Positions 9,123-31,491 of a DNA stretch of 32,000 bases are shown one piece after another. Position 1 is the first letter of the stretch. Each line of letters starts with the position of its first letter. Both the position numbers and the translations under genes were made by a program. The notes under the pieces are model-generated. The model saw nothing but the letters and a program-made list of their open reading frames with translations. It ran no database searches and was not told the DNA's origin. This DNA is from Pyrodictium abyssi (GTDB taxonomy: Archaea > Thermoproteota > Thermoprotei_A > Sulfolobales > Pyrodictiaceae): NCBI RefSeq assembly GCF_036323395.1, contig NZ_AP028907.1:1230001-1262000 (forward strand), written 5' to 3'.

Positions 9123-9611
9123 CCTGCCACCACACAGCAGGCCAGGAGCCCTACGACCACAGCGTACCAGGTGCCCTCCACAGCCTATAAGCACAAAGCC
9201 CCGAGCACCACGAATAGCCATCAGTCCTCCGAACTCCTCGCCGATACCCTTGGCGCCACGCAGCAGCCTAGACACCGCCTCCTCGCGGAGATGCAGCAGT
9301 AAGACGCCCCAGAGCCCCTCTCTCGGAGACCCGGATAAAGTGCAAGACGATATATAGAAGAACGTGCAGATAAAGCTTGCCAGCAAGGAGAGATATCTAT
9401 AAGGTAGACGGTATGTATCAATCTACACGGTGAAGATTCCTAGTGAGATTTATTTAGTCCACCTTTCCCCGATATAGACGTCTACTTAATCTTCCTACTT
9501 GCAACAATCACTACAATTATAGCAGGTAATATCCTTCACCTGCAAAAGAGGAGGCAACAGCAACTCCTTTGGATAGAAGCCATGCACAAATGAATCTCGT
9601 CATACCTGCAA

Positions 9612-9968
9612 GTGAAAAGTAAAGCTAGTAGCACCATTACTGCCAGGTCTTCGTCGTACAAGCTCGCTATAGAAATCCTAAGGGAGGTTCTAAGGAAAGC
9701 AAAGGTCTATCTCCATACGATAGAGCGGAATAAAACTTGGAGAGCGAACATACTCTCATCCGAGCTTAATACTGCGCTTATACTCGACTCGACAATAGTT
9801 AACGACACTACACTAGTTGATTTTATGGTTGCAACTAGAAACCTTACAACCTCAGCGAGCAAGATCTGCGACAACATCTACAGTGTATCAATCATCGTGA
9901 ACCCGGGTAGAGACATAAGGACCTCCAAGGGCGTGTACCTAATACTGATACCAGCAAGCAAACCATAG
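9612..9968 (+). CDS. Hypothetical orphan protein inside an AT-rich island
   Basis: This is the only ORF over 60 aa in the roughly 42% GC stretch 9390..10110. GTG start, Ser/Thr/Asn/Ile-rich, no recognisable motif. An open frame of 118 codons in AT-rich DNA is mildly significant, and nothing else supports it. Confidence 0.25.
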   Translation: MKSKASSTITARSSSYKLAIEILREVLRKAKVYLHTIERNKTWRANILSSELNTALILDSTIVNDTTLVDFMVATRNLTTSASKICDNIYSVSIIVNPGRDIRTSKGVYLILIPASKP

Positions 9969-10078
9969 CTTTGTTGCACCATATAGAGAGCGATACGCCC
10001 CTAAGTTGTTGCCCCAAGCGTCTGGGCGAACAATAAGGTATGTGTAGATTCTCTACCTAGTTGTCCTGGTTGTCCTGA

Positions 10079-10101
10079 AACCTTGAAACATCATCAAGGT
10101 T
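10079..10101. repeat. Perfect 8-bp inverted repeat AACCTTGA-N7-TCAAGGTT, preceded by tandem 9-mers TTGTCCTGG/TTGTCCTGA (10061-10078)
   Basis: Read directly from the sequence. It lies at the boundary between the AT-rich island and the 3' end of the DUF89 pseudogene. Function is unknown; a terminator or recombination site are possibilities. Confidence 0.5.
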
Positions 10102-10190
10102 GTGGTGCAGGTGATGCGCCCTAGCCTTCGGGCCACGGGGTCTGCGGACCGTCGCCACATATCCGTAAAATTCTGTAGAGGCTTGATGAG

Positions 10191-11060
10191 TTATCCACGC
10201 TTGATGACTATGTCGCCTACCTTGACCCCTAGGTCCTCAGCCACTACCGGGCACTTGGCCATTGAGAGGAAGTATATTCCCTCCACGCTGCTTAGATCCT
10301 CGTAGTTTCCTTGCCCCTTGGCTACTGCTAGGTCGTGGCTCCTTATCCACGAGAGTACTTCTGGCGAGTAGCGCTCGGGCCATGTGCCGGGCTTCCCGCT
10401 CGAGACCCTCTTGAACTCTATGTTCGGCAGCCGGTCTAGCCCTCACGTAGAGTGCGTCCTCTATCGTGGCGTTGTTGATTATTGAGCCTTCCTTGACGAC
10501 GAAGGATATTTTCTTGAAGGGTCTTCCTCTGGCCCGGATCATCTCCTCTATTATGAGCTTGTCGAGGACTGTCTCTCCCGCGTTGTCGGCGAAGTATAGG
10601 AGGGTTTCCGCGCTCTGTACCTCCTCTCTCAGCCTGCTATAGTCGTCTATGGCTGGCTTCTGCTTCATGACCTTCTCGATAGTGGCTCTAAGGTCGTAGG
10701 TCTCGACAGCGGCGAAGTCGATTATGTTACCCGCTATAGCCGCCTTAACGGCAGCCCTTAGCGGGTCCTCGTGCCGGGCTATCATGGATTTAACCTCGTC
10801 CACTATTGCCGGGGCCTCATCGTTGCTCGCCTTCTTGAGCTCCCTATACGGGTCGAGGACGCCCGTTAGCTCCTCGACTAGCCCAGCGACCCCGAGGCCC
10901 TAACAAGCTGCGGCGGAGTGCCAGCCCATCCTATCTCGGTTAGATGGCGCATCACCCTACGTAGCACTTCCTCCTGTACCCGGGGGTCGTCCGTCGCTAG
11001 TCTAGCCGCTCTAAGCGCCTGCCTAGCTATACACACTACACAGTCCAGCCGGAGCTTCAT
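10191..11060 (-). pseudogene. DUF89 (ARMT1-like damage-control phosphatase) gene interrupted by two compensating frameshifts
   Basis: N-terminus MKLRLDCVVCIARQALRAARL...GTPPQL is in the frame of ORF 10878..11129. The middle part GLVEELTGVLDPYRELKK...AIAGNIIDFAA...LLYFADNAGETVLDKL...NNATIEDA is in ORF 10237..10803. The C-terminus, which I translated by hand, is GLDRLPNIEFKRVSSGKPG...HDLAVAKGQGNYEDLSSVEGIYFLSMAKCPVVAEDLGVKVGDIVIKRG with its stop at 10191-10193, and it returns to the N-terminal frame. Frame breaks lie near 10900 and 10445. Confidence 0.75.
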
Positions 11061-11189
11061 ACAGTACCAGCCACGGGTAGGGCGCCACACCATGCCACAA
11101 GGATATAAGCAATCCAACACCAGAGGCATAGAGCCCCGGTGAGCCTTATACCCGGTAGTAATGGCTAGGTGACTTATTGTAGATCCCTG

Positions 11190-11623
11190 CTACGGGATGA
11201 CTCTAAGCCACGGGATACGCTCAAAGTCCCGGTCAAGCGTCGCCATAGTGTCTATCCCTTGGTACTTACATGTCAATGCGATTATAGAGTCTGCGAGCAT
11301 GAGGCCGTACCTTTCGGTGACCTCGATTATCTCACGAGGCTCCGACGTTATAGGCAGGGCTATGAACAGCCCCAGTATGGGTTCTACTTCGTTTCTTATC
11401 AGCGTGATGAGCTTCTCGTCTCTTTTGCAAGCAGCTGTCTTATTCTCTTCGAGCTAAGCCCGGTGGCTAGTCTTAGATAGCCATAGATAACCTCATTCAC
11501 TACTATGGCGTTAATGTAGCCGGTAATAGCGTGGTCTTCAACCTTCTCGATAATCCTGTAGGCCCGCTGGTCCTGGCCTGCCAGGAAAGCCAAGATCACA
11601 CTAGAATCCACGAATATCCTCAT
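11190..11623 (-). pseudogene. vapC: PIN-domain VapC-type toxin with one frameshift
   Basis: N-terminus MRIFVDSSVILAFL (first catalytic Asp) is in ORF 11399..11623. The C-terminal half, translated by hand in another frame, is EKLITLIRNEVEPILGLF...YGLMLADSIIALTCKYQGIDTMATLDRDFERIPWLRVIP, with its stop at 11190-11192. The frame break lies near 11410-11440, and the span is not a multiple of 3. Confidence 0.75.
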
Positions 11624-11825
11624 TCTCTATCTCCTCAATAACCTCCAGGAACTCGCTCCTTGTCAGCTTTGGTCTATGCTTCCTCACAATACCGTAGAAC
11701 TTCTGGGCGAGGGAGCCTTCGCCGGCCTTTAGGACAATCACCACCTCCTCTCCTTCCTTCATCTCCAATGGTTCTAGTGGTTTGAGCACACCGTTCTCAT
11801 ACCTTGCTCTTATGACTCTGGGCAA
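11601..11825 (-). CDS. DUF104 (AF2212-like) antitoxin partner of the PIN gene
   Basis: 74 aa. IRARYENGVLKPLEPLEMKEGEEVVIVL is the characteristic DUF104 block. It overlaps the PIN start by 23 nt. Confidence 0.8.
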   Translation of the reverse strand: MPRVIRARYENGVLKPLEPLEMKEGEEVVIVLKAGEGSLAQKFYGIVRKHRPKLTRSEFLEVIEEIENEDIRGF

Positions 11826-12865
11826 CTCAACCCCCTCCTAAAGGTAGACGTTCTAGCCACTTAGCCTTTCCCCGCTAGAACCACCTACGCGCCACCAAAC
11901 GGTAACCATGCACGAAAACGCGCCCCAGTCCAGCGGCGCCAGACACAGGTAGGGGGCCTTTTGCCGCCCCGGCCCGGGGGCTCTATCCTGGCGCCTTCCC
12001 GTCAAGGGCTGTATGGCTGGGCTCGTACAGCGCCACCGTGTAGGTAATGGTCCCGCAGGGGCCTTCGAAGTAGCGGCGGACCACCATAGGCAGGTCGCCG
12101 CCCGGCTTTATGGGGTCGAGATGCCCGATAGACCATTCTTAGACGACATATAGTCATTACTATTTACTAGCACGACTTTTATACCTACAATCGCCATAGC
12201 CGCTATCGCTGCTAGGAGTATTACTGCACGACCACCACTACTATTACGTAGTACTCGTTCCACAACATCACCACCATATACGATGATTCTATACGTATAT
12301 ACTCAGTGAGAGTCCAAACTAACCTAGAAGCTGAAAAGCTGTTCCAGCTAGTAGATGAGCTACCCAATATTCTTCTTCATAAGATCAGATGCTAGCCGGC
12401 CCAAACACTGGCTGCTACATGTGTAGCAAGCTGCTAGCCCTTCTCTCCGACTATCTTTGCGTCCATGCGTCCCTTGGCGTATACCCAGTCTCCTACCCGG
12501 AGCTCCCTCCTCGGGTCTCCTCTTACTGATGGCCAGTTCGCTACGAGCACTATCCCGCAGTCGAACACTATCCAGTGCCTCTTCTCCGCTCTCCGCCGGG
12601 GCGTCCTCCACGATGTCAACTACCTGCCCGAGGCAGGCATAGCTCGGGGCAGCGGGTACCTTGTCACCTGCTTAATGAACTTCTCAGGGACATTAGCCCT
12701 GCCCATGTAGAAGGTCATTACTTCATCTAGAGCCTGCCCATGGCCGCGGAGACGCCGTCACGGCCGTGCCCACGGCTTGCCGAGGGAACCACTATGCATC
12801 GGGCCCGGCTGGTACAGGTGCATGGAGGGGCTAGGCGGGGGTGACAATGCAGCCCCCGGGAGGCT

Positions 12866-14236
12866 CTAGGCCTCATGTTGTGTGCTGGTTGCTGCCTTCT
12901 TTACGCAGCCTATCGCGGTCTCTGCTAGCTCTTGCGGCCCGAGTGCTTCGAGGCCTGGGGGTGGCGGTGACTCTATGCCGCCTAGGCAGGCTATGCCCAC
13001 TCTTCGGGCGCCTATGGCTTCTGCGCGCTGGAGAACGGTCTTCATGTCGCTTTGGCTGCATGGGCCGAGCTTGACCTCGTAGGCTGCTATGGCTCTGCGG
13101 CCCCCGTGGTCGAGTACCACGACGTCTACGTCGCCTTGGCCGTCTGGCAGGATTGTGTAGGCTTGTAGGCCTCCGTGGTGCTCGGCGAGTAGCTCGCCCA
13201 GCGTGAACTGTAGTTCTCTCGCGTAGAGGCTGCGGGTGGCGTCGAGGAGGAGTTCTGGATCGCGGTGTGGGTGCTCGTCTACGCCGTAGATCTCGGCCAG
13301 CCCGTAGACTATAGCTAGTAGTGGCGAGGAGTGGCGGTAGTAGACGCGGGCGCCCCGTGTGCGCCAGAGCCGGGTCTTGGCTACTAGCCCTATCTCGGAT
13401 AGCCGGTCGAGGAGCCCCGTAGCCGGGCCTGCTCCGGGGCTGGAGAGGAGGCCCCGCTGGTATAGGAGGCCTGCTAGCTTCGCGCTGCTCCATACCCCGG
13501 CTGCTAGTAGGCGGAGGGCTGCCTCGTAGAGTCTTGTTAGCCGTCTCTCCTCCTCCTCGAAGACCTCTCCTATGAGCCCCCGCGCCATTTGCGCCAACAT
13601 GTAGGCGTTGCCAGCAATGAAGCGCCAGGGCTCGCCCTCGAGCCCCGGGGCCAGTGGCAGGAGCCAGGGCTCTCGCAGCACGACGCCCCATAGCAGGGCG
13701 TGGCGAGGCCCAAGCCGGGGTAGAAGCGACGAGACCACGTCGGCGTAGCGTAGCGGGTCTACGCGGAGGGGTAGCACTAGGCCTAGTAGGGGGCTGCGGC
13801 GGTCGAATACGCGATTCGCGACCCCGAGGCTAGAGGCTACGAGGACAAGCCTGCCCTCGGGGTGGCGTGTGGCTAGTAGGTCCCAGTAGCGCTCCGGTAG
13901 CCGCTGGAACTCGTCGACAACCACTACACCGTCCTCGGCTAGCAGCTCCACAGCCCTAGACATGGCCTCCCCTATCTCGGTGACCGTAGGCTTCTTCCCG
14001 GGCTCCTCCACTACCGCTGATAGGTCGCGCGTCACAGTCACGTAGAGCCGCCATGGGAGGAGCAGGCGTGCCATGAAGCTCTTCCCGGTCTTCCTACGCC
14101 CGTAGACCAGGAGCCAGCCGCTGCGGCGCTTCAGCTCGAGGAACTCGCGCCGCCATAGTACATGTGTCTCCTCCAACGCTTCTGCCCGGTATACCCGCTG
14201 GAATATACCCGCGAGTATATACCCACCGGAATGCAC
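12866..14236 (-). CDS. Archaeal AAA+ ATPase (COG1672 / Arch_ATPase) with C-terminal DUF234 nuclease-like domain
   Basis: Walker A LLVYGRRKTGKSFM and Walker B VVVVDEFQRL. The C-terminal block GDVDVVVLD...AYEVKLG is typical of the DUF234 restriction-endonuclease-like module. Confidence 0.85.
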   Translation of the reverse strand: MHSGGYILAGIFQRVYRAEALEETHVLWRREFLELKRRSGWLLVYGRRKTGKSFMARLLLPWRLYVTVTRDLSAVVEEPGKKPTVTEIGEAMSRAVELLAEDGVVVVDEFQRLPERYWDLLATRHPEGRLVLVASSLGVANRVFDRRSPLLGLVLPLRVDPLRYADVVSSLLPRLGPRHALLWGVVLREPWLLPLAPGLEGEPWRFIAGNAYMLAQMARGLIGEVFEEEERRLTRLYEAALRLLAAGVWSSAKLAGLLYQRGLLSSPGAGPATGLLDRLSEIGLVAKTRLWRTRGARVYYRHSSPLLAIVYGLAEIYGVDEHPHRDPELLLDATRSLYARELQFTLGELLAEHHGGLQAYTILPDGQGDVDVVVLDHGGRRAIAAYEVKLGPCSQSDMKTVLQRAEAIGARRVGIACLGGIESPPPPGLEALGPQELAETAIGCVKKAATSTQHEA

Positions 14237-14490
14237 GGGGCACGGCCACGATAAGGGGTGGCTAGCCTTGTTGGGACGCGTCTAGGGGGCACGCCCATGG
14301 ACAGCTGGAGCCGGCGACTATGCTCCCCGGGTCCGGGGCAATGGTTTATGCTTGGCTTATGCTTGCAGCCGGCCTCCCCCGGGGCTACCCGTAGGGCGGG
14401 GTGGAGCCGTTAGGAGCTGGAGGGCGAGGCCCCATGGGCTGGCAGAACATAGTCAGCTAGGAGACGTCAATAAGGATAGCCCAGACTTCG

Positions 14491-14498
14491 AAGAAAAA
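14491..14498 (-). terminator. Oligo-T tract (TTTTTCTT on the minus strand) about 30 nt downstream of the purT stop
   Basis: The plus strand reads AAGAAAAA at 14491-14498. Archaeal RNAP terminates at oligo-T runs, and this is the only such run after the last operon gene. Confidence 0.3.
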
Positions 14499-14528
14499 CG
14501 GTGAGGTGAGCATATAGGTAGGATTGTT

Positions 14529-15749
14529 TTAGGTGTGGCTGCGTGGGAGTATCTTTAGCTTCTCTGCTGCCCGTCTGGCCTTGGCGCGGGCTTCCTCGGG
14601 TGTCTCGGCACGGGCTAGTACTACTGCCATGCGGCGGCCCCGGTAGGTTCTGGGCTTGCCGAACCAGCGCAGCTCTACGCCCGGCTCGGCTAGGGCCTGG
14701 TAGGCGCCGCTGAGCACGGGGTACCACTCGCCGTCGAGGTTTGTGTATACTGCTATGCTGGCTGCGGGGGTTAGGACACTGGGCCTGGGGACGGGTAGGC
14801 CTACTGCTGCGCGTACGTGGGCTTGGAACTCGCTGATGTCCTGGCTGGCTAGGGTGACTAGGCCTGTGTCGTGGGGCCTGGGCGCCACTTCGCTGAAGAG
14901 GAGCCGGCCGTCCCTAGTCTGTAGGAGCTCGACGCCGAATACCCCGACGCCGCCTAGGGCCTCTGCTACCCGTGCTGCTATCTCGCGGGCCCGGTGGAGC
15001 AGGCCCGTGGGCCTGGTGCTGGGCTGCCAGGACTCTATGTAGTGGTACTCGCCGTACCTCCAGTGCTCGACCGGCTCCATAGCGTCTGTTCTCGCCTTGT
15101 CGCCGTCGAGCCACCGGTAGGCGAGGACAGTGTACTCTGTCTCTAGCTCAACGTACTCCTCCACTATGACGCGGCGGCTCGCACCCCGGGCGTGGCTTAT
15201 CGACTCCATGTAGGCCTTCTCGACAGCCTGGCGGCTAGGCTCCGCGACCTTTACGTGGCCGTGGCCGCTACTGCTCATCTCGGGCTTGATTAGGCAGGGG
15301 TAGCCGACCTTCTCGCAGGCCTCGTAGGCCTCCTCAGGCGTCTCGGCGAAGGCATACCTTGTGGTGGGTAGGCCTAGCTCCTCGGCCGCCCAGCGCCGCA
15401 GCTCTATACGGTTCATCGCTATCCTGACTGCCCGCGCGTTGGGCACCACGTGGTAGCCCTTCTCCTCGAGCCTCTCCAGCGCCTCGGTGTTGATGGCCTC
15501 TATCTCGGGTACCACCGCTACCGGGTTCTCGCGCTCCACGATGGCCTCCACTGCGCCCGCGTCGAGCATGTCCACGACGTAGCGGCGGTGGGCTACGTGC
15601 ATCGCTGGGGCCCAGTCGTAGCGGTCGACAACGACCACCTCTAGGCCGAGCCGCTGCGCCTCTATCGCTACCTCCTTGCCTAGCTCGCCGCCGCCTAGTA
15701 GGAGCACCTTGGCTGCTCCGGGGCCCAGAGGGCTGGGTATGGAGTCCAT
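14529..15749 (-). CDS. purT: Formate-dependent phosphoribosylglycinamide formyltransferase (GAR transformylase 2)
   Basis: KVLLLGGGELGKEVAIEAQRLGLEVVVVDRY, ATP-grasp blocks and PEMSSSGHGHV. The track ORF extends to 16001, but that part overlaps purD and is Arg/Pro-rich. The start is therefore placed at ATG 15749 (MDSIPSPLGPGAAKVLLLGGG), giving 406 aa. Confidence 0.9.
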   Translation of the reverse strand: MDSIPSPLGPGAAKVLLLGGGELGKEVAIEAQRLGLEVVVVDRYDWAPAMHVAHRRYVVDMLDAGAVEAIVERENPVAVVPEIEAINTEALERLEEKGYHVVPNARAVRIAMNRIELRRWAAEELGLPTTRYAFAETPEEAYEACEKVGYPCLIKPEMSSSGHGHVKVAEPSRQAVEKAYMESISHARGASRRVIVEEYVELETEYTVLAYRWLDGDKARTDAMEPVEHWRYGEYHYIESWQPSTRPTGLLHRAREIAARVAEALGGVGVFGVELLQTRDGRLLFSEVAPRPHDTGLVTLASQDISEFQAHVRAAVGLPVPRPSVLTPAASIAVYTNLDGEWYPVLSGAYQALAEPGVELRWFGKPRTYRGRRMAVVLARAETPEEARAKARRAAEKLKILPRSHT

Positions 15750-15844
15750 CCTAGGGGGTATACCCACCGCTATGCACCCCGCCAGGGGCCGGCCTTGGAT
15801 CATACAGAGGGCACATACATGGGGTCTGAAAGAAACGTGCAGGC

Positions 15845-17350
15845 CTAGCTGTAGTCGTGGACTATTAGGCCGCGGCCGGGTATCCAGTCGTAGATCCTGG
15901 TCTCGCCTCGGGCGCGGCGCCTCGTGTAGGCCTTCCTCACGCGCTCGGCTAGCGCCACGCGGCTCTCTATGTGGCTCCTCTGGCCTATGTCGCGGCGCCA
16001 TACGAGGGGGTGGCCGTCGAGAAGCCTCACCGCCTCCGCCGCGCGCTGGGCCCTGGCGGCTGCGTCCTCGTAGCCCTGGCTGCTCCAGCAGACTATCTCC
16101 ACGAGACGGGAGCCCGTGGAGACGAGGCCGCGGGGGCCCTGGTCTACCCCGGCGTAGAGTAGCCTGCAGCCCTGGCGCTCGACAGCGTCTCTGTCTACGG
16201 CCACCGGGTGACCCCGGGCTAGGGCCCGGTTGTTGGGGTAGCCTGCGGGTGCTAGCGCGATGTTGACCACGTAGACGTCGTTGTCTACCTCTAGCCGGTA
16301 GCCGGCTAGCCTGCCCGAGGCTGCGCGGTCCAGCAGCTCTAGGAAGTCGCTCCGCAGCATGGGGAGCAGGTTGCCGGTCTCGGGGTCGCCAAACCTGGCG
16401 TAGTACTCTATGACCGTGGGGCCCCAGAGGCTGGTGAGCATCATCTGGCCGCTAATGGTGCCGCGGTAGGGCTCCCCGGTCTCCCGCCGGAGGGCCTCCA
16501 CGGTCTTCTCGAGTACCTCGACTGTCTCCCGGTACTCGCCGAGCTCGAGGAAGGGAGGCACAACGCCGGGCCCGCTGACCGCGCCCATTCCCCCAGTCTC
16601 GGGGCCGAGGTCCCAGCTGAAGAGGTGGGGGTGGTCCTGTACCACTGGCAGCGGCACCAGCGTGGAGCCGTCAGTGACCGCCATCACGGTGTACTCTACG
16701 CCCTCAACCCTCTCCTCGACTATAACCGAGTAGTCTATGTCGCTGTACTTCTCCCGCACCTCGCGGGCCAGCTTCTCCGCGTAGCTCCCCGCCGCCCCGC
16801 GCACCGCTGCCCCAAGGTGCTCCATGGGCTCCGCGAAGACGCGTACGCCGCGGCCGCCAGCCTGCCGGGCAGGCTTGACCACCACGTCGCCCGCTGCGCG
16901 GGCGTACTCCGAGGCCTCCTCGGGGTCCGTGAAGACCTGGTAGCGTAGCCGCCCCGGGATACGGTAGCGCCACATGAGCCCGCGGGCATAGGCCTTGTCC
17001 TTCTCTATCCGGGCCTGTGCCCTGCCGGGGCCGTAGACTGTGAAGCCCTTCTCCCGGAGCGCGTCCGCGACGCCCGCGAAGAGGGGCTCCTCGGGGCCTA
17101 TGACCACGAGGTCTGGGCTCCAGTCCTCGGCCGCCTGGAGGGCGTCGCCGGGGCTAGTGGGCTTGCCGGGGTAGAACCTTCCCCCGGTGTTCTCGGCGGC
17201 TTCTACTAGGCCTGGGTTCCTCTTGTCGCTTAGCACCGCTATGCGGGGCTCCATGCTGCTGCCCGCTATGAGCAGTGCGAGGGCGTGTTCGCGGCCGCCG
17301 CTGCCCAGTAGGAGCACCTTCACTCCCGGCTCACCTCCTCCAGCATGCAC
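15845..17350 (-). CDS. purD: Phosphoribosylamine-glycine ligase (GAR synthetase)
   Basis: VKVLLLGSGGREHALA N-terminal block and ATP-grasp core. GTG at 17350 opens the frame. GTG 17323 overlaps the TGA stop of the upstream purF paralogue as GTGA and is the more likely coupled start. Confidence 0.9.
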   Translation of the reverse strand: MHAGGGEPGVKVLLLGSGGREHALALLIAGSSMEPRIAVLSDKRNPGLVEAAENTGGRFYPGKPTSPGDALQAAEDWSPDLVVIGPEEPLFAGVADALREKGFTVYGPGRAQARIEKDKAYARGLMWRYRIPGRLRYQVFTDPEEASEYARAAGDVVVKPARQAGGRGVRVFAEPMEHLGAAVRGAAGSYAEKLAREVREKYSDIDYSVIVEERVEGVEYTVMAVTDGSTLVPLPVVQDHPHLFSWDLGPETGGMGAVSGPGVVPPFLELGEYRETVEVLEKTVEALRRETGEPYRGTISGQMMLTSLWGPTVIEYYARFGDPETGNLLPMLRSDFLELLDRAASGRLAGYRLEVDNDVYVVNIALAPAGYPNNRALARGHPVAVDRDAVERQGCRLLYAGVDQGPRGLVSTGSRLVEIVCWSSQGYEDAAARAQRAAEAVRLLDGHPLVWRRDIGQRSHIESRVALAERVRKAYTRRRARGETRIYDWIPGRGLIVHDYS

Positions 17351-18543
17351 GCCGTGCAGGGGTCTATGCCGTGGCTCTTGAGGTAGGAGACGGCCTCGCC
17401 TAGGGGGAGCCAGGCTAGGCTATCCACGTCGAGGACGCGCTCTATCGCATCGTCGCTTAGCTGGCGGGCTATCAGGCTGCCTGGCTCTAGGAGCTGGACG
17501 CGGTGGGGGCACGTGGCTACTATCTTGGGGCTCGAGACTGCTACGTGCAGCTCGCGGGGGGCCTGGCTACGCCACAGCCTGTGGATGAAGGTCTTCAGCG
17601 TGAGCCCGGTAACCACGCTATCGTCGACTACCGCTACCCGTCTCCCCTCGAAGACGCCGGGCACGGGGTTGAACTTGAGGCTGAGCATCATCAGCCTCTC
17701 CTCCAGCGACGCCTGGGCTATGGCGGTTCTCACACGGCCTATCGTGGAGACTAGCGCCAGCTCCATGGGGGCCTGCTTCTCCTCGGCGTAGCCTAGGGCG
17801 TAGGGGAGCGCGGTCTCCGGTACCCCTACCACGACGTCTACCTCCACGGGGTGGCTGCGGGCGAGCCGCCGGCCCATCTCCCGGCGGAACAGGTACACGT
17901 TCACGCCGTCCACGAGGCTGTCTGGGCGCGCCAGGTAGATGTACTCGAAGAGCGAGGTGGCGCGGCGGCCCCTGCCGGCGCTGTAGGTGTCGAGCGTGTA
18001 GCGGTCCCCGTAGACAGCCTCGCCCGGCTCGAGGTCGCGGCGGGGCTCCCCGCCCATCAGGGTTATGGGCGCTGTCTCCGTGGCGGCGTAGACTGCGTCG
18101 AACCCGTAGCCGCCTAGGCTGAGGGGCCGTACCCCGCTCCTCCCCCGGTACAGCACGTAGCCGCCGCTGCCTGTCAGCGCCGCTACCGTGCAGCCGTCGA
18201 ACCTGGTGCTAGAGGCCAGCGCCTCGGCTGCCTCGCGGGGGCTCCCAGCGGCCTCCACCAGCCTCAGTGCCTCCGCTGCGCTGCATGCACCGTCCACGGC
18301 CACGGCTGCGCTGCGTGAGGCGGCGAGGCTCCCAGTGGGCTCCACTGCCGCTAGTACCGCGCTGCCCTCGGGTAGGCTCCAGCCGTTGCTCCACGGGTTG
18401 AGCCTTCCCTGCTCTAGCCCGTCGCCGCGTAGAACCGCGTAGGAGACCCTTGGCCCGCGGTGCCGCAGCCCCATGACGCCGTAGCGGGCGTAGAGGCCGG
18501 CTGGCTGGTCTGGCTCGTAGAAGTAGACTAGCAGTACGCCCAT
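17320..18543 (-). CDS. Amidophosphoribosyltransferase paralogue with a degenerate glutaminase domain
   Basis: Collinear with PurF. It retains FEYIYLARPDS and the PRPP loop RRVAVVDDSVVTGLTLK. It begins MGVLLVYF, so there is no Cys after Met, and it lacks the NGN oxyanion block. Start placed at ATG 18543, 10 nt after the purF stop; the longer track ORF would overlap purF by 98 nt. Confidence 0.8.
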   Translation of the reverse strand: MGVLLVYFYEPDQPAGLYARYGVMGLRHRGPRVSYAVLRGDGLEQGRLNPWSNGWSLPEGSAVLAAVEPTGSLAASRSAAVAVDGACSAAEALRLVEAAGSPREAAEALASSTRFDGCTVAALTGSGGYVLYRGRSGVRPLSLGGYGFDAVYAATETAPITLMGGEPRRDLEPGEAVYGDRYTLDTYSAGRGRRATSLFEYIYLARPDSLVDGVNVYLFRREMGRRLARSHPVEVDVVVGVPETALPYALGYAEEKQAPMELALVSTIGRVRTAIAQASLEERLMMLSLKFNPVPGVFEGRRVAVVDDSVVTGLTLKTFIHRLWRSQAPRELHVAVSSPKIVATCPHRVQLLEPGSLIARQLSDDAIERVLDVDSLAWLPLGEAVSYLKSHGIDPCTACMLEEVSRE

Positions 18544-18553
18544 GCCGTATGGC

Positions 18554-19909: not shown

Positions 19910-19919
19910 GGTGCCAGCT

Positions 19920-22103: not shown

Positions 22104-22774
22104 CCCCTGCGCAGCGCTTCGCCTATCGACGTGAAGAACGGGTGGCCCCCGGGCCTGCGGCCGCGGGGGACCTGGAGTGGGCTCGCCGCTCGCTCCGGGT
22201 GCGGCATTAGGCCGAGAACGGCTCCGTCCTCGGAGGCCAGGCCGGCGACGTCTGCGACGCTGCCGTTAGGGTTCTCGAGGTACTCTAGCCAGGGCCTGGA
22301 CCGGAGTAGCTCCCCGGGCGCGGGGTGGTAGAAGCGCCCCTCAGCATGGGCCACCGGCATGTCTAGCACAGCGCCGGGCTCCACGTGGAGTAGCCAGGGG
22401 CCGCGCGGGCTGTGCACCCGGACCCGGAGCCACCTGGCCACGAAGCGGCCGCCCTCGTTGGGTAGGAGGGCGCCGGGGAGTACGCCCGCCTCCACGAGGA
22501 CCTGGAACCCGTTGCATATCCCGAGGATAGGGGCGCCGTTCTCGGCCGCCTCGCGGAGCTGCCTGGCCGCGGGGCTCCAGGAGGCTAGGAGCCCAGCGCG
22601 CCCGTAGTCCCCGTAGCTGAAGCCTCCCGGCACAACTGTAGCGTCCCAGTCCCTCCAGCGGTACTCGGTGTGCCACACTACGCGCGCCTCTACGCCGGCC
22701 ACCTCGCGCAGCATGTAGGCTGTCTCCTGGTCGCAGTTAGTGCCGGGGAACCGGAGCACAGCGACTCTAGGCAA
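22097..22774 (-). CDS. purQ: Phosphoribosylformylglycinamidine synthase subunit I (glutaminase)
   Basis: VAVLRFPGTNCDQE, catalytic Cys in GICNGFQVL, and MPHPER. Confidence 0.95.
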   Translation of the reverse strand: MPRVAVLRFPGTNCDQETAYMLREVAGVEARVVWHTEYRWRDWDATVVPGGFSYGDYGRAGLLASWSPAARQLREAAENGAPILGICNGFQVLVEAGVLPGALLPNEGGRFVARWLRVRVHSPRGPWLLHVEPGAVLDMPVAHAEGRFYHPAPGELLRSRPWLEYLENPNGSVADVAGLASEDGAVLGLMPHPERAASPLQVPRGRRPGGHPFFTSIGEALRRGW

Positions 22775-23030
22775 GAGTGATCACCAGGAGCGTGTGGACC
22801 GCGGGGTTGAAGAGCCGGGTCTCGCGGGCCATTTCCTCTACGAGCCTCTCCGCCTCCTCCCTCGACTCAGCCTCGACCTCTACTATGAACGCCTTCCCGG
22901 CGCGGATCCCCTGGACCCAGGTGTAGCCTAGCCTTCTCAGCTCGTCTGCCAGCGTCTCGCCCTCAGGGTCCCGGGCCGACGGCTTGTAGGCTACTATTGC
23001 CAGCACACGGTGCCGGGTCAACCGGTGCAC
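22767..23030 (-). CDS. purS: Phosphoribosylformylglycinamidine synthase subunit PurS
   Basis: 87 aa, with DPEGETLADELRRLGY...IRAGKAFIVEVEA matching the PurS pattern. It sits between purC and purQ with 13-nt and 8-nt overlaps. Confidence 0.85.
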   Translation of the reverse strand: MHRLTRHRVLAIVAYKPSARDPEGETLADELRRLGYTWVQGIRAGKAFIVEVEAESREEAERLVEEMARETRLFNPAVHTLLVITLA

Positions 23031-23746
23031 CTCCTCTCGGGCTCGCCGGCTAGACGGGCTAGCTCCCTGTAGGCCTCCAGCAGGGCCTCGACGCCGCCAC
23101 CGCGCCTGTAGACCTCCTTGTCCAGGTGCCTACCCCCGCTGTCAACCAGCCTCATCGTGTCGCCTGTGACCTCGTCGACCACCACGAAGCCCGTGGCAGA
23201 CCGAGCCACCTCGATCTTAAGGTCTACTAGCCGGAGGCCCCGCCGGCGCCAGAACATCTCGAGGACGCTGCTTACCCGGAGGGCTAGGCTCTGGATGTCC
23301 CAGAGCTCCCGCCACGATAGGAGCCCGGCCTCGACAGCGTCCTCGGGGAGAACGAGCGGGTCGCCCCTCGCGTCGTCCTTGAGGTGCAGCTCCACCAGGG
23401 GCCGGAAGAGCCTCTCCATGGGCTTTAGGAGCGGCATCCTGCGAAGGAGCGAGCCATAGGCATAGTTCCTCACTATCACCTCGAGGGGGATGACCTCGTG
23501 CCTCCTAGCGAGGAGCCTGGAGCCGCCCATGTAGCACACATAGTGTGTCGGCACACCGTGCTCCTCTAGCAGCTCGAACATCCGGGCAGAGAGCCTGGCT
23601 GCTAGCTCGCCTTTGCCCGGCGCCGTGTCGCGGCGCTTGCCGTCGAACGCTGTGACCTCGTCCTTGAACTCGAGTACCACCAGGCCATTGCCCGCGTCGA
23701 GGACCCGCTTCGCCTTGCCCTCGTAGAGTAGCTCACCCGTGCGCAG
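23018..23746 (-). CDS. purC: SAICAR synthetase; the 5' end is uncertain because there is no canonical start codon
   Basis: The track ORF starts at GTG 23680 (MVLEFKDEVTAFDGKRRD). The same frame is open upstream and encodes the conserved PurC N-terminus LRTGELLYEGKAKRVLDAGNGL. The only start-like codon there is CTG at 23746, which would give a canonical length of 242 aa. Confidence 0.85.
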   Translation of the reverse strand: MRTGELLYEGKAKRVLDAGNGLVVLEFKDEVTAFDGKRRDTAPGKGELAARLSARMFELLEEHGVPTHYVCYMGGSRLLARRHEVIPLEVIVRNYAYGSLLRRMPLLKPMERLFRPLVELHLKDDARGDPLVLPEDAVEAGLLSWRELWDIQSLALRVSSVLEMFWRRRGLRLVDLKIEVARSATGFVVVDEVTGDTMRLVDSGGRHLDKEVYRRGGGVEALLEAYRELARLAGEPERRCTG

Positions 23747-23788
23747 CCCGGACCCCCGGGGTCCCGGAACTTGCCTGAGTAACTGGTC

Positions 23789-23798: not shown

Positions 23799-24149
23799 CC
23801 AGGATGTAGGACCCCGTAGCTCTTACTTAGCTAAGTGAATAAGCAAGCTACTCGGCCTAGTTACATGAACTACACGCGCGAATATCCTTGCAGATACAGA
23901 TGTGCACGGACTGCGTGCGAATACCATATAGTACGCTAGGCCGTGGTCCCCGGGCAAACGAGTGTAGAGTATCCTACAAGCGAGTGTTAATGATCGCTCG
24001 GCTATAGCCAATATAGTAGGCCCCTTTACTCGGTTTTAGCAGCGGTATTTGGACCGAACCGTGTAATTCACGCCCGAAGACCATAGGAATTGTATTAGAT
24101 GCCGATGTTAAAGGAGATCCCAATGGCGCCGTATCTCTGAATCCTGAAG

Positions 24150-24630
24150 GAGAATCTAGAGCTACCCGTCGGCTTCGTCTGGGTGCTGGCCAGCGCCTTC
24201 CCAGTATTCTTCATGCAGGCTTCGCCATGGTAGGAGCCGTTCACCAGGCTAAAGAACACGATAAGCGCGTTGCTTAAGAACCCATCATGCTTCACTGTGG
24301 CTGGCATGGGCTTGTCCGCCTAGTCGGCTACACATCCACGATGGACAGTGACTGGGAAGGCGTCGTTTGACCGGCTGCTTTGCGCTAATAGGAGGCAACT
24401 ATGGTGCTAGAGAGATGCTCTTATGGTTCTTCTATGCGAGTGTCTGCAGGAGCAGCTGCAACTATCGTCTCTGGCGCCATAGCCTAGAAGACGAAACTCA
24501 CAAGCTATCTGCTAGACAGCGTAACGATGACTGCTTTTCATCTAGCCGGTACATGGCCACCGGACACCGGATATGGGGGGTGACTGGGCTACCCCTAGGG
24601 AAGGCTCACCAGAGGCTGTCTGGCTAGGAG
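24150..24630 (+). pseudogene. amt: Ammonium transporter (Amt/MEP) remnant: N-terminal third only, with multiple frameshifts and stops
   Basis: Hand translation across the three plus frames gives Amt signature blocks. These are VWVLASAFPVFFMQA-GFAMV-FTRLKNTISALLKN and, further on, AGAAATIVSGAIA(stop)KTKLTSYLL...PVHGH, which compare with Amt MQAGFAMxEAGxxRxKN and ATIVSGAxAER. The track ORFs 24095..24307(-) and 24367..24627(+) are fragments or shadows of this remnant. Confidence 0.6.
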
Positions 24631-24639
24631 GCCCTTTGC

Positions 24640-25076
24640 CTATTCTGTGTCCGCCCTAGCGCCTTGCAGCCATGCGCTGGTGCCTACTGCTATGTCTCTC
24701 GCCTTTGCCAGTATTTCTTTGTCGCTTGTCAATAGCTTCGCCCCGTGTAGCCTCGCGTAGTAGACGTATGCCGCGTCGTAGGCTGTTAGGCCTAGCTGCT
24801 CTGCTAGCTTGCTAATCGCCTCCAGGTCTTCTGGCTTGATGCGCAATACCGCCAGGTGCCCGGCGAGCCTGGATACAGCAGCGGCTAGCCGGTGGGGCTC
24901 CTGTACGAGCCCTCTACGCGCCTCTATGACGGCGGCGTTGGCTGCCTCGTACAACGTTAGGTCGAGTACCGCTGCCTCTTCCTCGAGCAGCTTCTCGGCG
25001 ACCATGCATCGCTCACAGCGTCGCGGTACAGCAGCTTAGCGAGAGGATACAGGGCGGATGCATCGAGTATTATCAA
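24640..25076 (-). pseudogene. vapC: PIN-domain VapC-type toxin with one frameshift
   Basis: N-terminus (TTG)IILDASALYPLAKLLY is in the frame of ORF 24957..25310. The rest, AEKLLEEEAAVLDLTLYEAANAAV...GLTAYDAAYVYYARLHGAKLLTSDKEI, is in ORF 24640..25005. The break lies near 25005-25040. The TTG start overlaps the corrected vapB stop as TTGA (25073-25076). Confidence 0.75.
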
Positions 25077-25310
25077 GCCGTGGCCCTCCCTCGGCGGGAA
25101 GCTTTGACCGCCTCTACCCAGTCTTCCACGGTGAGATCCCCGCCAGCAGCGGCTAGTTCTCTCAGCGCTTCTGCTATCCTCTTCTTCCTCTCCTCTATGA
25201 CATGCGCGGCGTAGGGACTCCTCTACGACGCGGCGGATATCTATGCCTAGGCGCTCGGCCTCCTCCTTGAGCTTGCGGGGTACGCGGACAGAGACCACCA
25301 CGGTGGACAA
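25073..25310 (-). pseudogene. vapB: Ribbon-helix-helix VapB-type antitoxin with one frameshift
   Basis: TTG start. MSTVVVSVRVPRKLKEEAERLGIDIRRVVEESLRRA is a typical RHH strand plus helices. After about 25203 the plausible continuation VIEERKKRIAEALRELAAAGGDLTVEDWVEAVKASRRGRATA(stop 25073-25075) is in another frame. The span is 3n+1 nt. Confidence 0.65.
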
Positions 25311-25320
25311 CAGCCACGCC

Positions 25321-27330: not shown

Positions 27331-27385
27331 TCCTTAGGCGATAAGAGACCGAAAGAGGCTATTACAGATTTATGTAAATATAGAA

Positions 27386-27781: not shown

Positions 27782-27788
27782 TCCAGGG

Positions 27789-28205: not shown

Positions 28206-28210
28206 TCTAG

Positions 28211-28223
28211 TTAACCCGGTTAA
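28211..28223. promoter_or_regulatory. Perfect palindrome TTAACC-C-GGTTAA: candidate operator of the RHH-protease cassette
   Basis: Read directly from the sequence. It begins 6 nt upstream of the TTG start at 28205, the position where archaeal repressors commonly act (between the TATA box and the start). Confidence 0.3.
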
Positions 28224-28310
28224 ACCAGATGCACCGGCTAGTCTTAAGCCTTGGGGTTGAAGCCGCTACGCCATAGCCCATAGCGCGTGGACTAGAGCCG
28301 TGAACGTCGT

Positions 28311-29682
28311 CTACAGCTTCTCCGCGATCTCTCTGGCTACTGCTTCTATGCGTCTCCGGTATCTCTGGAGGGCGTTTAGCAGTGCTTCGGGGCCTCCCTT
28401 GGCTAGTAGTTTTTCCCGGACCGCGTGGGAGGCTGCTGCCTCTGGGTTCTCTAGTATCTGCTCGAGGCTGTCTGCTAGGCTTGCCATGGCCAGGTTCCAG
28501 CGGAGGTAGTTCCTCACCTTCTCCTCGCCGTGCCTGGCGGCTGCTGCCCGTAGCGCTTCTGAGAGCCTGGTGTAGGCCTTTACCAGCTTCCGGTACTCCT
28601 CCCTGTACCTGGAGGCGAAGCTGGCGAAGGGCGTGCCTTCTAGGAGGGGGAGCAGGTCGTCTATCCTCCCTGCCGCGGCTAGCCGGGCTATGCGGCGGTA
28701 CATGCTCCTGCGGGTCGCCTCGTCTACCTCTGCTGCTCCTAGGAGGCTCTGGAGCACGTACCTCCGGTTCTTGATCTTCAGCATGTAGTTCCACCAGGGA
28801 AAGCCCAGATAGGTCTCGCCCGGGAAGAGGACGACTATCCCCTCGCCGCCCAGCTCCTCGGCAGCCCTAACCAGCTCCTGGATGGTCTCTGCCTCTACCC
28901 GGCGTGGCCTGGGGAAGCCCGTGTCTGGAGCGTGTAGCACACCTCCATAGTGTCGTGCCTCCTCGCTGCAAGGAGGTAGACTCTCCACCGGGGGTCGCCG
29001 GGCGGAGCCTCGAGCTCCCTCCCTAGGCACCGGCTAAGCAGGGCACCCGGCGTTCACAAGCTCGAACATCACCGTGGTGTCCTCCTTTACGAGGCTCTCG
29101 AGCTCCCAGCCCGCCACCCTTTACAGCCGCCAGGAGTCTCTCGACGTAGAGGTTCCGTGCTGCAGGCGGCCGGTGTAGGCTCCCCCGGGTGCTTAGGAGC
29201 AGCTCACCGGTATCCGGGTCGCGGTACGCTGCCACCAGTGTGCCGTCCAGCTTCTCGGTGGCCACGAACCCGGCTCCGGGTATCCTGGAGCACTCCCGGC
29301 ACTCACGGTAGTTGAAGAACTTGGCAAAGGGCATTGCGGGCTGCTTCACCGCGCCGCCGGGGTAGTGGCGCACCACGGCCCCACGCGCAGCCGCTAGTAT
29401 GAGTCTTCGGAGATAGTCCCGGGGCTGCAGGCTGTACTTGTAGAGCAGGATACACTCCTTGCCGGAGGGGAGGAGGCACCGCCTGCTCCACATGCGGTTG
29501 ACAGCAGCCATAGCCCTGCGGATCTCGTCTAGGCCCGCCCCTGGGCCGGCTCCTACTAGCCGGGCTAGGAGGCCCTGCTCGCCGCTACTGAGCCCCTCTA
29601 GGTCCCTATAGTACACCTCGAAGGGCATGAGCAAGGGCCGGCTACACCTCCGGGCCAGCGCCCTCGGGTCCATGTACGGCAC
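28311..29682 (-). pseudogene. ATP-dependent RNA ligase of the T4 Rnl1 type, interrupted by at least three frame changes and one in-frame TAG
   Basis: The following motifs were assembled by hand across frames. Pre-motif FAKFFNYRE (T4 Rnl1 KFFNLNE). Motif I TEKLDGTLV (KxDG). Motif Ia LSTRGS. Motif III TVMFELV. WRVYLLAARRHDT. Motif IV GEGIVVLFPG. Motif V MLKIKNRRY. There is also a helical C-terminal domain. Frame breaks lie near 29110, 29045 and 28940. The track splits the gene into 29023..29682 and 28311..29030. Confidence 0.75.
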
Positions 29683-29865
29683 AGTGTAGGGCCGAAGGGC
29701 GGCACAGGCTCTCTGCCGATACTGCTACAGCACAGCTCCTAAAGAGGGCCTCTGAGCCCCCGAGGCTGGCAAGAGACACGTCATAAGCCGGTACAGCAGC
29801 GCTGCATACACGATGCCGCCCTGGAAGGGCCGGGCAGGCTCCCGGGAGAGGCGTCTTTAGCCCTC

Positions 29866-30879
29866 GTGGCGGTGTACCGGGGGCTGGGGGGCTGGCTGTT
29901 CTCCTTGCTCCCGCGGTTCGTGGATCGTGTCGAGGAGCTGCGTAGGCTTGAGGCCTACGCGCTGGAGGGGTACTACCCGGTACTCTACCTCTACGGGCCC
30001 GAGGGCTGCGGCAAGACCCGGCTCCTCCGGGAGCTCCACCAGGTGCTGAAGCAGCGCGGCGACGTGGTAGCGGTCTACGTGGATGCTCAGAGCACGTCGG
30101 GGCCCTGGGAGGCTGTGGAGGCCCCTCCGGAGCTGGCCCGGCTCCTCGCGGAGGCTGCTGCGGAGTATGCTGGGCCCCCGGGCCGGGCGGCTGCGCTGGC
30201 TCTGCTCCGCGTCCTCGGCCGGGTCCGGGAGCGGCTCGTCCGCGGCAAGCACGTCGTGGTGCTCGTGGACGATGTGGCGCGCCCCCTGGGGCTAGAGAGG
30301 GTAGAGGCCTACACGAAGAGCCTCTTAGACCTCGTGGAGAGGCTCCAGGCCCAGGGCGCTGCGAGCGTGCTAGCCCTGGCGACTACGAGCGAGGCGGCGA
30401 GCCGCAGCATCTTGGCGAGGCACAGCCACGCCTCGCTAGCCCAGCTCTGGAACCTGGGCCCCGAGGCCTTCGAGGAGCTACTAGAGGTCCTCAGCGCGCC
30501 CCGCCACGTGCGGGAGCAGGCATGGAGGCTGCTGGGCGGCAACCCCCGGCTAGCCCTAGCCCTCCGTGCGAGAGGCTGGAGGGCTGAGAGGCTCATAGAG
30601 GACACGTATCCCCGTGTACGCGCCCTCCTCGAGGAGCTCCCCAGGAGCCTCCTCCGGGGCCTAGAGGAGGCCGTAGAGGACCCGGACGCCCTGAGGGAGA
30701 ACCAGGAGCTACGCCGACACCTCGTCGAGGCGAACCTCGCCACGCCGGTGGAGAGGCCATGCCTAGGCTACACGCCCCCGCCCGACCCCGAGCAGGGGGT
30801 GGGCAGGAGCTACGTCTGGCAGACACCGCTATACCGGATACTCGCCAAAAAGTACCTAGAAGAAGCGGGGAAGCCATGA
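29866..30879 (+). CDS. Archaeal P-loop NTPase (Arch_ATPase-like), paralogue B
   Basis: FVDRVEEL, Walker A YGPEGCGKTRLLREL, Walker B HVVVLVDDVARPLGLERVEAY, and AWRLLGGNPR. Collinear with ORF 4914..5954. Divergent from the RNA ligase pseudogene, with a 183-nt spacer. Confidence 0.75.
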   Translation: MAVYRGLGGWLFSLLPRFVDRVEELRRLEAYALEGYYPVLYLYGPEGCGKTRLLRELHQVLKQRGDVVAVYVDAQSTSGPWEAVEAPPELARLLAEAAAEYAGPPGRAAALALLRVLGRVRERLVRGKHVVVLVDDVARPLGLERVEAYTKSLLDLVERLQAQGAASVLALATTSEAASRSILARHSHASLAQLWNLGPEAFEELLEVLSAPRHVREQAWRLLGGNPRLALALRARGWRAERLIEDTYPRVRALLEELPRSLLRGLEEAVEDPDALRENQELRRHLVEANLATPVERPCLGYTPPPDPEQGVGRSYVWQTPLYRILAKKYLEEAGKP

Positions 30880-31096
30880 ACCCTCTCCACCCGCCGCAGC
30901 TACGGCGTGCCGAGCCACTCCTCCTAATGGATCTACGTGAACAGGACTCGCCATGCAGCCAGAGCCGGTGCCTTGGAGCACCCTTCAGCCCGGGCAGCGG
31001 CTAGCGCACCGGCATCCCATATGCCGTACATGATGGGTTGCAGGGATGAAGGCCAGCACTGCACGGCGCCACCGCTATACATGCTGTGAGCCCGGC

Positions 31097-31491
31097 CTAG
31101 CATGTAAGCTTGTTTATGAGCTGCTTGGCCTCCTGCAGGAAGCCCTCTAGGCTGGGTTCCTCTAGGGGCTCTACTCTGCCGCCTACATGCTTGTAGTGGG
31201 GAAACGTGGCGCCTCAGCGTGGCGGGGCGCATTGTTATACCGTAGCGCATCTACATGCACACTATCCTTATCGCCGCTACCATACCCCGTTATGACTAGC
31301 TGGTACCCATAGCCTATTAGGCGGCCGCTTCTCCAGACTTCTCTGGCCTCGAGCAGCGCTCGCCTATCCACGCGGAGCCTCAGCCGTAGGACGAATGTTT
31401 CTCTGCCAGCCCTTGTCTTCACGCCGGGTAGCCGCGCTTCCGGGAAATACCTCCTCACCAGGCCTACTATGTACTCTATCCTCGGCTTCAT
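31097..31491 (-). pseudogene. DUF6516 / TumE-like putative toxin with one frameshift
   Basis: ORF 31183..31491 ends ...YGYQLVITGYG...DALRYNNAPRHAEAPRFPTTSM. Shifting frame near 31195 gives FPHYKHVGGRVEPLEEPSLEGFLQEAKQLINKLTC(stop 31097-31099). This restores the family hallmark RYDNAPHH...FPHHKH as I recall it. The span is 3n+2 nt. Confidence 0.6.

Follow-up and report, generated by a model that had tools for sequence, protein, structure and literature searches.

The enrichment of pseudogenes in the flexible DNA of prokaryotes is already known and was documented two decades ago, when Liu et al. (2004, Genome Biol 5:R64; PMC522871) reported 'widespread gene decay and failure of putative horizontally transferred genes'. 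The decay of chromosomal toxin-antitoxin cassettes is commonplace (surveyed by Makarova et al. 2009; PMC2701414). TumE-TumA, a toxin-antitoxin family validated recently, is a bicistronic module in which the partner gene lies upstream of the toxin, and its validated examples come from Gammaproteobacteria (PMC10584680). The present analysis concerns a stretch of 32,000 nucleotides (hereafter the window, which always denotes the stretch at its full length) from the hyperthermophilic archaeon Pyrodictium abyssi, in which an ammonium transporter gene (amt), a DUF89/ARMT1-like phosphatase gene, an RNA-ligase-like gene, several toxin and antitoxin genes and a small open reading frame (ORF) are broken, while the core genes around them, including a pur operon, are intact.

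Exact matches of nine ORFs place the window in the complete 2,224,219-bp chromosome of P. abyssi, where it covers locus tags PABY_13580 to PABY_13920; strain AV2 (assembly GCA_036323395.1) has a guanine plus cytosine (GC) content of 63.5% (PMC13140500). A literature search for a paper on the sequencing of the P. abyssi genome found none. The genes in the variable parts of the window are likely to be decaying under relaxed purifying selection, the core being kept clean by selection. For each claimed site, all three frames were read on the relevant strand, the fragments were rejoined and the rejoined proteins were scored against Pfam. Every disruption listed in a preliminary description of this DNA proved to be present on these grounds, at or within a few bases of the position given there. 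Homology continues past the frame change, stop or truncation in the DUF89, vapC-1, vapC-2, vapB-2, ligase, TumE-like and amt genes; for the small ORF, the same continuity is supported by one remote homologue. Seven indels were mapped at the nucleotide level against intact or related copies, namely -1 and +1 in DUF89, -5, +1 and -1 in the RNA ligase, +1 in vapB-2 and -4 in vapC-2, and the majority of these lie outside homopolymers.

Conserved blocks, variable islands and the distribution of lesions

The window was compared with a Logan contig (L087), four ENA metagenome contigs (L089-L092) and two assemblies of P. delaneyi, one of which is Su06. Nucleotide identity to the blocks of the window is 93-95.6% for L087, L089 and L090 and 79-87% for P. 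delaneyi. The genes of L087 are arranged in the order M32, DsbA-like gene, purM, radical SAM gene, purT, purD, purF', purF and purL, without window positions 3324-5949 and without the entire stretch 8245-14526; its DsbA-like gene is separated from purM by 160 nucleotides (nt) and its radical SAM gene from purT by 98 nt. Positions 8249-12858 of the window are missing from all four metagenome contigs, and the window and every relative part ways after position 27302. The window is made up of conserved blocks with variable islands between them, and the lesions lie inside the islands or at their edges.

The GC profile of the window shows blocks at 62-71% broken up by stretches at 49-57%, the latter located at 9-13 kb, 24-25 kb, 27-28 kb and 31-32 kb. 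Variable island 1 (8245-14526) extends from the radical SAM gene to purT at the site that is empty in L087, and comprises a HepT-MNT pair, an AT-rich stretch of 0.8 kb free of ORFs, the DUF89 pseudogene, the vapBC-1 cassette, the small-ORF remnant and an ATPase gene, ATPase (b). Its GC content is 49-57%, as against 63-71% in the core. An empty site in close relatives together with atypical base composition identifies it as a genomic island. Among the hallmarks of mobility, no tRNA gene, flanking repeats or integrase (the last sought among the Pfam matches of the window proteins) accompanies it, and no tRNA genes, Rfam families or notable repeats were found anywhere in the window.

Nine indels were counted outside amt, all of them in the 9.3 kb of accessory coding sequence and none in the 17 kb of core and other coding sequence (P = 9e-5). 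At the level of genes, 7 of 16 accessory genes are broken as compared to 0 of 14 others (Fisher's exact p = 0.007). When the classes are drawn independently, by synteny with the relatives, the variable part amounts to 46% of the window and receives eight of the nine indels (P = 0.011); treating the vapB remnant as variable too, on account of its absence from P. delaneyi, brings the count to nine of nine (P = 0.001). The preliminary description had most accessory genes frameshifted, which is overstated, as seven to eight of about 17 are broken and nine are intact. Its claim that the core genes are clean holds: the approximately 17 kb of conserved coding sequence shows zero frame-breaking gaps relative to three to four relatives, and the M32 peptidase, purM, radical SAM, purT, purD, purF, purL, purQ and purS genes match their profiles virtually from end to end. 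HepT and two of the three ATPases also match end to end, and the third ATPase, with weak profile matches only, has no frame-breaking gap relative to L090. The intact purC-purS-purQ-purL-purF-purF'-purD-purT operon (14529-23746, minus strand), with full-length NCBIfam or Pfam matches, served as a control; this block is 93-95.6% identical at the nucleotide level to L087, L089 and L090 and 87% identical to P. delaneyi.

The broken genes have a GC content at third codon positions (GC3) of 56-69%, compared with 78-85% in the core, and the possibility has to be considered that low-GC island DNA is intrinsically prone to indels, through replication slippage or damage at about 100 °C, whether or not the genes it carries are dispensable. 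All the broken genes do lie below the core in both GC and GC3, and the lesions cluster, with three within 200 nt of the ligase gene. The ligase gene, however, has a near-core GC content of 64% and yet bears three lesions, and low-GC accessory genes of the same islands are intact (vapB-1 at 49%, a protease-like gene at 52.5% and the TumA-like gene at 56%). Most indels also lie outside repeats and homopolymers, and the excess of nonsynonymous changes in DUF89, described below, points to relaxed selection. Mutation bias is accordingly regarded as quite improbable, and selection is inferred to be behind the pattern.

The amt, vapBC-2 and DUF89 remnants

All six Pyrodictium-group relatives, both P. 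delaneyi assemblies included, carry an intact amt gene (427-488 amino acids, aa) and an intact glnK/P-II gene (114 aa) between purC and a gene for a membrane protein of 582-594 aa. At this site the window retains a 5' remnant of amt (24089-24640, plus strand) that matches positions 1-125 of the 399 of the Ammonium_transp profile (PF00909); its identity as Amt is given by this match and by the orthologous position, which in the relatives is beside glnK. Only the first 0.5 kb or so is kept, up to the end of homology at about 24600-24640; at the locus, the rest of amt (its 3' two-thirds) and the whole of glnK are gone. The remnant is 77% identical to the orthologues of L089-L092, while its flanks are 89-93% identical, and it contains at least ten indels of a length not divisible by three as well as a GAG to TAG change, in agreement with the many lesions and the 3' truncation reported earlier. 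A competing explanation for the window at large is that some or all of the single-base frameshifts are consensus or assembly errors, concentrated in low-GC or atypical regions, and that the genes are intact in the cell. Such errors cannot account for amt, with its truncation, its ten or more indels and an identity of 77% beside flanks of up to 93%. Judged from its sequence and synteny, amt is best read as an old, real pseudogene of an ancestral gene that was destroyed in P. abyssi, and not as a failed horizontal transfer. Titles cited in PMC13140500 describe P. abyssi as a heterotroph that grows on peptides and P. delaneyi as an autotroph. A link between the loss of amt-glnK at this locus and peptide heterotrophy is plausible, and the loss is a concrete genomic difference between the heterotrophic and the autotrophic species.

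The vapBC-2 cassette adjoins the amt remnant. Its PIN-domain toxin gene, vapC-2 (24640-25076, minus strand), lacks 4 nt at about 25023 in comparison with L090-L092; the N-terminal part is read in frame 2 and the remainder in frame 0, and the rejoined protein matches positions 1-117 of the 120 of the PIN profile. The antitoxin gene vapB-2 (25073-25310, minus strand) lies upstream of vapC-2, the stop codon of the one and the start codon of the other sharing the 4 nt TTGA. No Pfam family matches vapB-2, which contains one extra nucleotide at 25203, where L090-L092 read 'VVEESLRRAIMEERKKRIAEAL' in a single frame. Both the toxin and the antitoxin of this pair are dead, as the preliminary description had stated. 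The four contigs of the sister lineage contain the same vapB and the first vapC codons in a long spacer between the membrane-protein gene and glnK, but their lesions differ from those of the window: vapB has lost 35 nt, a base is missing from a run of C in two of three contigs, and vapC is truncated and diverged. The cassette was not found in P. delaneyi. Since four independent metagenome assemblies of the sister lineage carry the cassette with different lesions, the remnant in the window is genuine and old, and vapBC-2 appears to be an ancestral insertion that is decaying independently in both lineages. Consensus error again fails as an explanation, the lesions being shared or paralleled in four other assemblies.

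The DUF89/ARMT1-like phosphatase pseudogene (10191-11060, minus strand) differs from the genes of L084-L086 by the deletion of one A after 10894 and by the insertion of one G at 10444, both outside homopolymers. The two shifts, both anticipated in the preliminary description, compensate exactly and restore a 289-aa protein. When rejoined, the protein scores 185 bits over positions 4-310 of the 311 of the profile, whereas the best single fragment scores 86 bits. Dozens of homologues are known from the searches, almost all of exactly 289 aa and 80-89% identical, with P0022 at 89%. The copy in the window carries seven private substitutions at sites that are invariant across 32 homologues (down to 68% identity), including G191E, P193S and D197N in the conserved KGGPxxND stretch as well as G227W, whereas homologues with comparable terminal-branch lengths have 0-2 such changes. 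With L086 as the outgroup, the ratio of nonsynonymous to synonymous codon changes is 19/22 on the branch of the window and 3/15 on that of L084 (Fisher p = 0.04). This excess of nonsynonymous change, which cannot be produced by sequencing errors of the indel type, points to relaxed selection on DUF89. The gene was probably acquired by transfer from a lower-GC member of the Thermoprotei, since it has a GC content of 57% and is 80-89% identical to genes of other Thermoprotei; for purF, the relatives stand at 57-64% identity among the matches listed.

The RNA-ligase-like gene and the toxin-antitoxin modules

The RNA-ligase-like pseudogene (28311-29634, minus strand), encoding a putative nucleotidyltransferase with a KxDG motif, is interrupted by three frameshifts within 200 nt. 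Relative to three intact homologues (L081-L083), 5 nt have been lost after 29119, a T has been gained at 29037 and one nucleotide is missing at about 28924, every other gap being a multiple of three; the earlier count of at least three lesions is thereby confirmed. Intact homologous proteins (P0001-P0005) are 441-444 aa long and 61-77% identical. The rejoined protein scores 21.5 bits against PF09511 (RNA_lig_T4_1), below the cut-off of 28.3, and the intact homologues have precomputed matches to the same family, some of them flagged as faint; a search of PDB sequences with the rejoined protein gave no meaningful match. The motifs KxDG ('EKLDGT'), 'FELV', 'EGIVV' and 'KIKN' are nevertheless legible in the alignment. 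The lesions are considered recent because the catalytic motifs are still legible and because substitution has not accelerated significantly. In a more distant relative (L082), the order of genes is membrane protein, HEPN/MNT pair and ligase. Intact homologues at 61-77% identity and the same membrane-protein neighbour in this distant relative suggest that the ligase may be an older resident that is being lost, rather than a failed transfer.

Four toxin-antitoxin modules were recognised in the window. In both vapBC-1 and vapBC-2, a predicted PIN toxin gene lies directly downstream of a small antitoxin gene, which is the VapBC layout. The vapC-1 pseudogene (11190-11623, minus strand) has one frameshift, its N-terminal part being read in frame 1 (11626-11402) and its C-terminal part in frame 2 (11453-11193). 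The fragments match positions 1-56 and 91-119 of the PIN profile, and the rejoined protein matches 1-119 of 120 with 62.6 bits. The shift was bracketed to 11455-11402 by the reading frames, and the run of four A at 11426-11423 is its likely site. The AF2212-like antitoxin gene vapB-1 (11601-11825, minus strand) is intact (PF01954, positions 1-59 of 59, E = 5e-19; PABY_13700, annotated as 'antitoxin family protein') and is orphaned because its toxin has been inactivated.

The TumE-like toxin pseudogene (31097-31491, minus strand) passes from frame 0 to frame 1 between 'RFP' and 'HYKH', where one base is missing in TTTCCCC(C)AC at about 31201-31198. The rejoined protein, and only the rejoined protein, exceeds the gathering cut-off of PF20126 (24.8 bits as against 23.4, positions 5-80 of 81); this family, formerly DUF6516, is now named 'Toxin TumE'. 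Across the junction it is 46% identical to P0176, its only detectable homologue. An intact ORF of 103 aa (31497-31808, minus strand; PABY_13920) lies upstream and is presumed, by analogy with the known modules, to be a TumA-type antitoxin; it has no Pfam match. On L081 (2440-3057, minus strand), an 85-aa homologue of this partner (36% identical) occurs upstream of the intact ligase, and the three short ORFs that come after it, in different frames, resemble a broken TumE-like toxin ('YHYED...FCYNNA', 'PLYHKRL'), so that the toxin may be decaying in the lineage of L081 too. In the fourth module, the HepT-MNT pair (8262-9120, minus strand), both genes are intact, with HepT matching positions 1-118 of 120 of its profile and the MNT nucleotidyltransferase domain present.

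Consensus error finds its best ground among the lesions in the ligase, vapC-1 and TumE-like genes. When the lesion sites were checked for homopolymers, as the preliminary description had proposed, most were found outside them, and three were placed in short homopolymers (the ligase lesion at about 28924, the TumE-like lesion and probably that of vapC-1). The ligase and TumE-like genes show no excess substitutions, and the DUF89 shifts compensate exactly to restore a 289-aa protein. On the other side, homopolymer errors do not take the form of the 5-nt and 4-nt deletions or of the DUF89 indels, nor is a nonsense substitution typical of consensus error; the 17 kb of conserved coding sequence shows zero frameshifts although the intact genes contain 289 homopolymer runs of at least 4 nt, none of them tied to a frameshift, and DUF89 has an excess of nonsynonymous changes in addition to its indels. 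Consensus error is thus considered unlikely, and the recent lesions would seem to be real in the DNA. A further explanation is that the lesions in these three genes were acquired in the laboratory, during decades of passage of the type strain in culture collections and not in the vent population. The lack of detectable extra substitutions beside these frameshifts would fit such an origin, and a reference listed in PMC13140500 dates the description of the strain to 1991. Three independent indels in one 1.3-kb gene are, however, many for passage, and a laboratory origin would be a special case of real decay and not an alternative to it; it is held to be very improbable.

Several points weigh against decay under relaxed selection as the general reading. 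The accessory and core classes of the first two distribution tests were set after the data had been seen. Accessory status alone does not predict decay, given that nine accessory genes of the same islands are intact. Relaxed selection is seen for amt (77% identity in relation to its flanks) and for DUF89, where the test is marginal (p = 0.04), and is unseen for the ligase, whose relative-rate test gave 28-33 changes as compared to 21-25 (p = 0.23-0.59, with p = 0.39 for 28 as compared to 21) and no significant acceleration. For the ligase, vapC-1 and TumE-like lesions, the assembly sequence alone fits consensus error as well, three of the lesions being in short homopolymers, and the out-of-frame C-terminus of the TumE-like gene, still highly similar to P0176, fits a very recent mutation and a consensus error equally. 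An exact-sequence look-up of the island proteins returned only one NCBI record.

Decay under relaxed purifying selection would operate as follows. Dispensable genes in the variable parts would lose purifying selection and take up ordinary small indels and deletions, their remains being gradually cleared by deletion, while cells with lesions in core genes would be purged, leaving the core clean. The decay would be of at least three ages. As old events, the ancestral amt-glnK pair would have been hit by a deletion of at least about 1.3 kb, after which the 5' stump drifted, and vapBC-2 would have been decaying already in the ancestor common with the sister lineage. At an intermediate stage, the transferred DUF89 gene would have been frameshifted twice and would then have gained substitutions of the active-site type. 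Most recently, the ligase, vapC-1 and TumE-like genes would have been frameshifted with little or no extra substitution. The preliminary description had spoken of an ongoing erosion of toxin-antitoxin and other horizontally acquired genes. Real decay that spares the core stands, but vapBC-2, already decaying in the ancestor, is old. Horizontal acquisition fits DUF89; the comparison with six related sequences, which established amt and vapBC-2 as evolutionary pseudogenes, revealed an ancestral and syntenic amt-glnK that was not acquired, and the ligase looks like an older gene.

Toxins are inactivated in three of the four modules (vapC-1, vapC-2 and TumE-like), HepT being the only intact toxin, and two cognate antitoxins, vapB-1 and the TumA-like protein, are intact. 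A toxin could be lost without cost before its antitoxin, whereas loss of the antitoxin first would be lethal, and dead toxins with intact antitoxins would agree with this expectation. A more ambitious reading, possible but doubtful, is that the window records one lineage-specific episode of gene loss tied to obligate peptide fermentation, in which toxins were systematically inactivated first. The ancestral Amt-GlnK operon for the uptake of ammonium would have become dispensable and been deleted beside a decaying vapBC cassette, the RNA ligase and the DUF89 damage-control phosphatase would have been shed in parallel, and the orphan antitoxins could guard against re-addiction. If this were true, the window would offer, on a small scale, a time series of genome streamlining that can be dated, in an organism whose growth extends up to 110 °C.

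Neighbouring features and comparison with known systems

The small gene remnant (12437-12724, minus strand), to which no function was assigned, lies in the part of island 1 that is absent from all relatives and is interrupted by a TAG at 12622-12620. A search across 1.8 billion proteins gave seven matches, one of which is the 44-aa tail, the only part that is annotated (PABY_13720). Another is a distant homologue of 133 aa, P0146, and the alignment of its residues 50-133 with 12724-12440 runs on across the TAG. Around the TAG, frame 1 aligns poorly, and frame 2 reads 'SYACLGQVVDIVED', which is closer to 'EYLFVGEISEIDHE' of P0146. The stop codon reported in the preliminary description is present, but the lesion may be a double frameshift instead of a nonsense codon. 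With either type of lesion, the alignment marks the ORF as the putative remnant of a gene. A cluster mate of the 44-aa tail, P0149 (440 aa), was rejected as an unrelated low-complexity protein grouped by a clustering artefact.

Three stretches of the window are free of convincing genes. One of 0.8 kb in island 1 (9390-10190, GC 45-49%) has no convincing ORF and could be what is left of a gene after complete decay, or else the terminal part of an inserted element; another of 0.6 kb (11826-12436), with short ORFs only, separates vapB-1 from the small-ORF remnant. The ORF-free regions 9121-10190, 11826-12436 and 30880-31100 had no match in Pfam, in Rfam, or by blastn and tblastx against all the fetched loci. 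A second variable segment, 3324-5949, absent from L087, holds a 330-aa membrane protein and ATPase (a), both intact. The genes at 4914-5954 and 29866-30879 are paralogous members of the 'archaeal ATPase' family (PF01637), located in different variable segments and both intact, with nucleotide identity of up to 87% in stretches around the P-loop. In ATPase (b), a 1-nt and a 2-nt gap relative to L090 occur 12 nt apart at 14176-14190 on the minus strand and keep the frame. They lie near the annotated start of this 456-aa protein, whose counterpart in L090 is called 20 aa shorter, and on this alignment the stretch may be upstream of the true start.

Within the pur operon, a purF-like gene (17320-18545, minus strand) lies beside purF. 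Its product begins with 'MGVLLVYF...', without the catalytic Cys at the N-terminus, and its match to the purF profile is confined to the C-terminal part; the gene shows no frame-breaking gap relative to the relatives. It appears to be a stable paralogue and not a pseudogene because it is kept as a 407-aa gene in all the relatives. A lesion was suspected in purC, as no ATG, GTG or TTG occurs upstream of the ELLYEGKAK motif, and was rejected on finding the same in all six relatives. The initiator Met of distant homologues is aligned with the CTG at 23746-23744, a codon kept in six of six Pyrodictium-group relatives (L089-L094), which looks like a lineage-wide non-canonical CTG start; in the various gene calls for purC, the CTG, an ATT or an internal ATG (giving 202 aa) is taken as the start. 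Among the relatives, purT of L089 (15369-16607) and of L090 (15300-16538), on near-identical contigs, differ by one base, an AAG to TAG change that splits purT of L089 into 152 and 249 aa; in that relative, this core gene either carries a nonsense mutation at the strain level or has been misassembled.

For annotation, eight loci in PABY_13640-13920 merit a pseudogene flag instead of being listed as short 'hypothetical proteins', as is PABY_13720 with its 44-aa tail. The frameshifted crenarchaeal TumE-like member is a minor addition. The pattern as a whole illustrates the known rule that prokaryotic pseudogenes accumulate in the flexible genome, and raises no new question.

An archaeal example of programmed frameshifting or recoding is the alpha-fucosidase gene of Saccharolobus solfataricus. 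The broken genes of the window resemble it in being split over two frames; they differ in that the interruptions are not conserved and the homologues are read in a single frame. Programmed frameshifting was rejected on these single-frame homologues, on the absence of a slippery heptamer, on the presence of several lesions per gene and on the -5 and -4 nt lesions. The modules of the window have the form of known type II modules (VapBC/PIN, HepT-MNT): they are small pairs of genes, located in variable regions, in which the antitoxin gene precedes the toxin gene. As in decaying type II modules, the toxins are inactivated while antitoxins persist (vapB-1 and the TumA-like protein); vapBC-2 departs from this pattern in that both genes are dead and the sister lineage bears independent lesions. 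The TumE-like gene resembles TumE-TumA (Durairaj et al. 2023, PMC10584680) in passing the PF20126 threshold and in lying directly downstream of a small partner gene, and differs from the validated examples in being crenarchaeal and frameshifted, with one detectable homologue (46%) and a partner without a recognisable family. Like the pseudogenes described by Liu et al. (2004; PMC522871), the copies with frameshifts, stops or truncations are enriched in atypical, non-core DNA, and the core is intact; DUF89, with its GC content of 57% and its 80-89% identity to genes of other Thermoprotei, conforms to the 'failed transfer' of that study. Unlike such transfers, amt-glnK is ancestral and syntenic, and the ligase is found in the same neighbourhood in a more distant relative.

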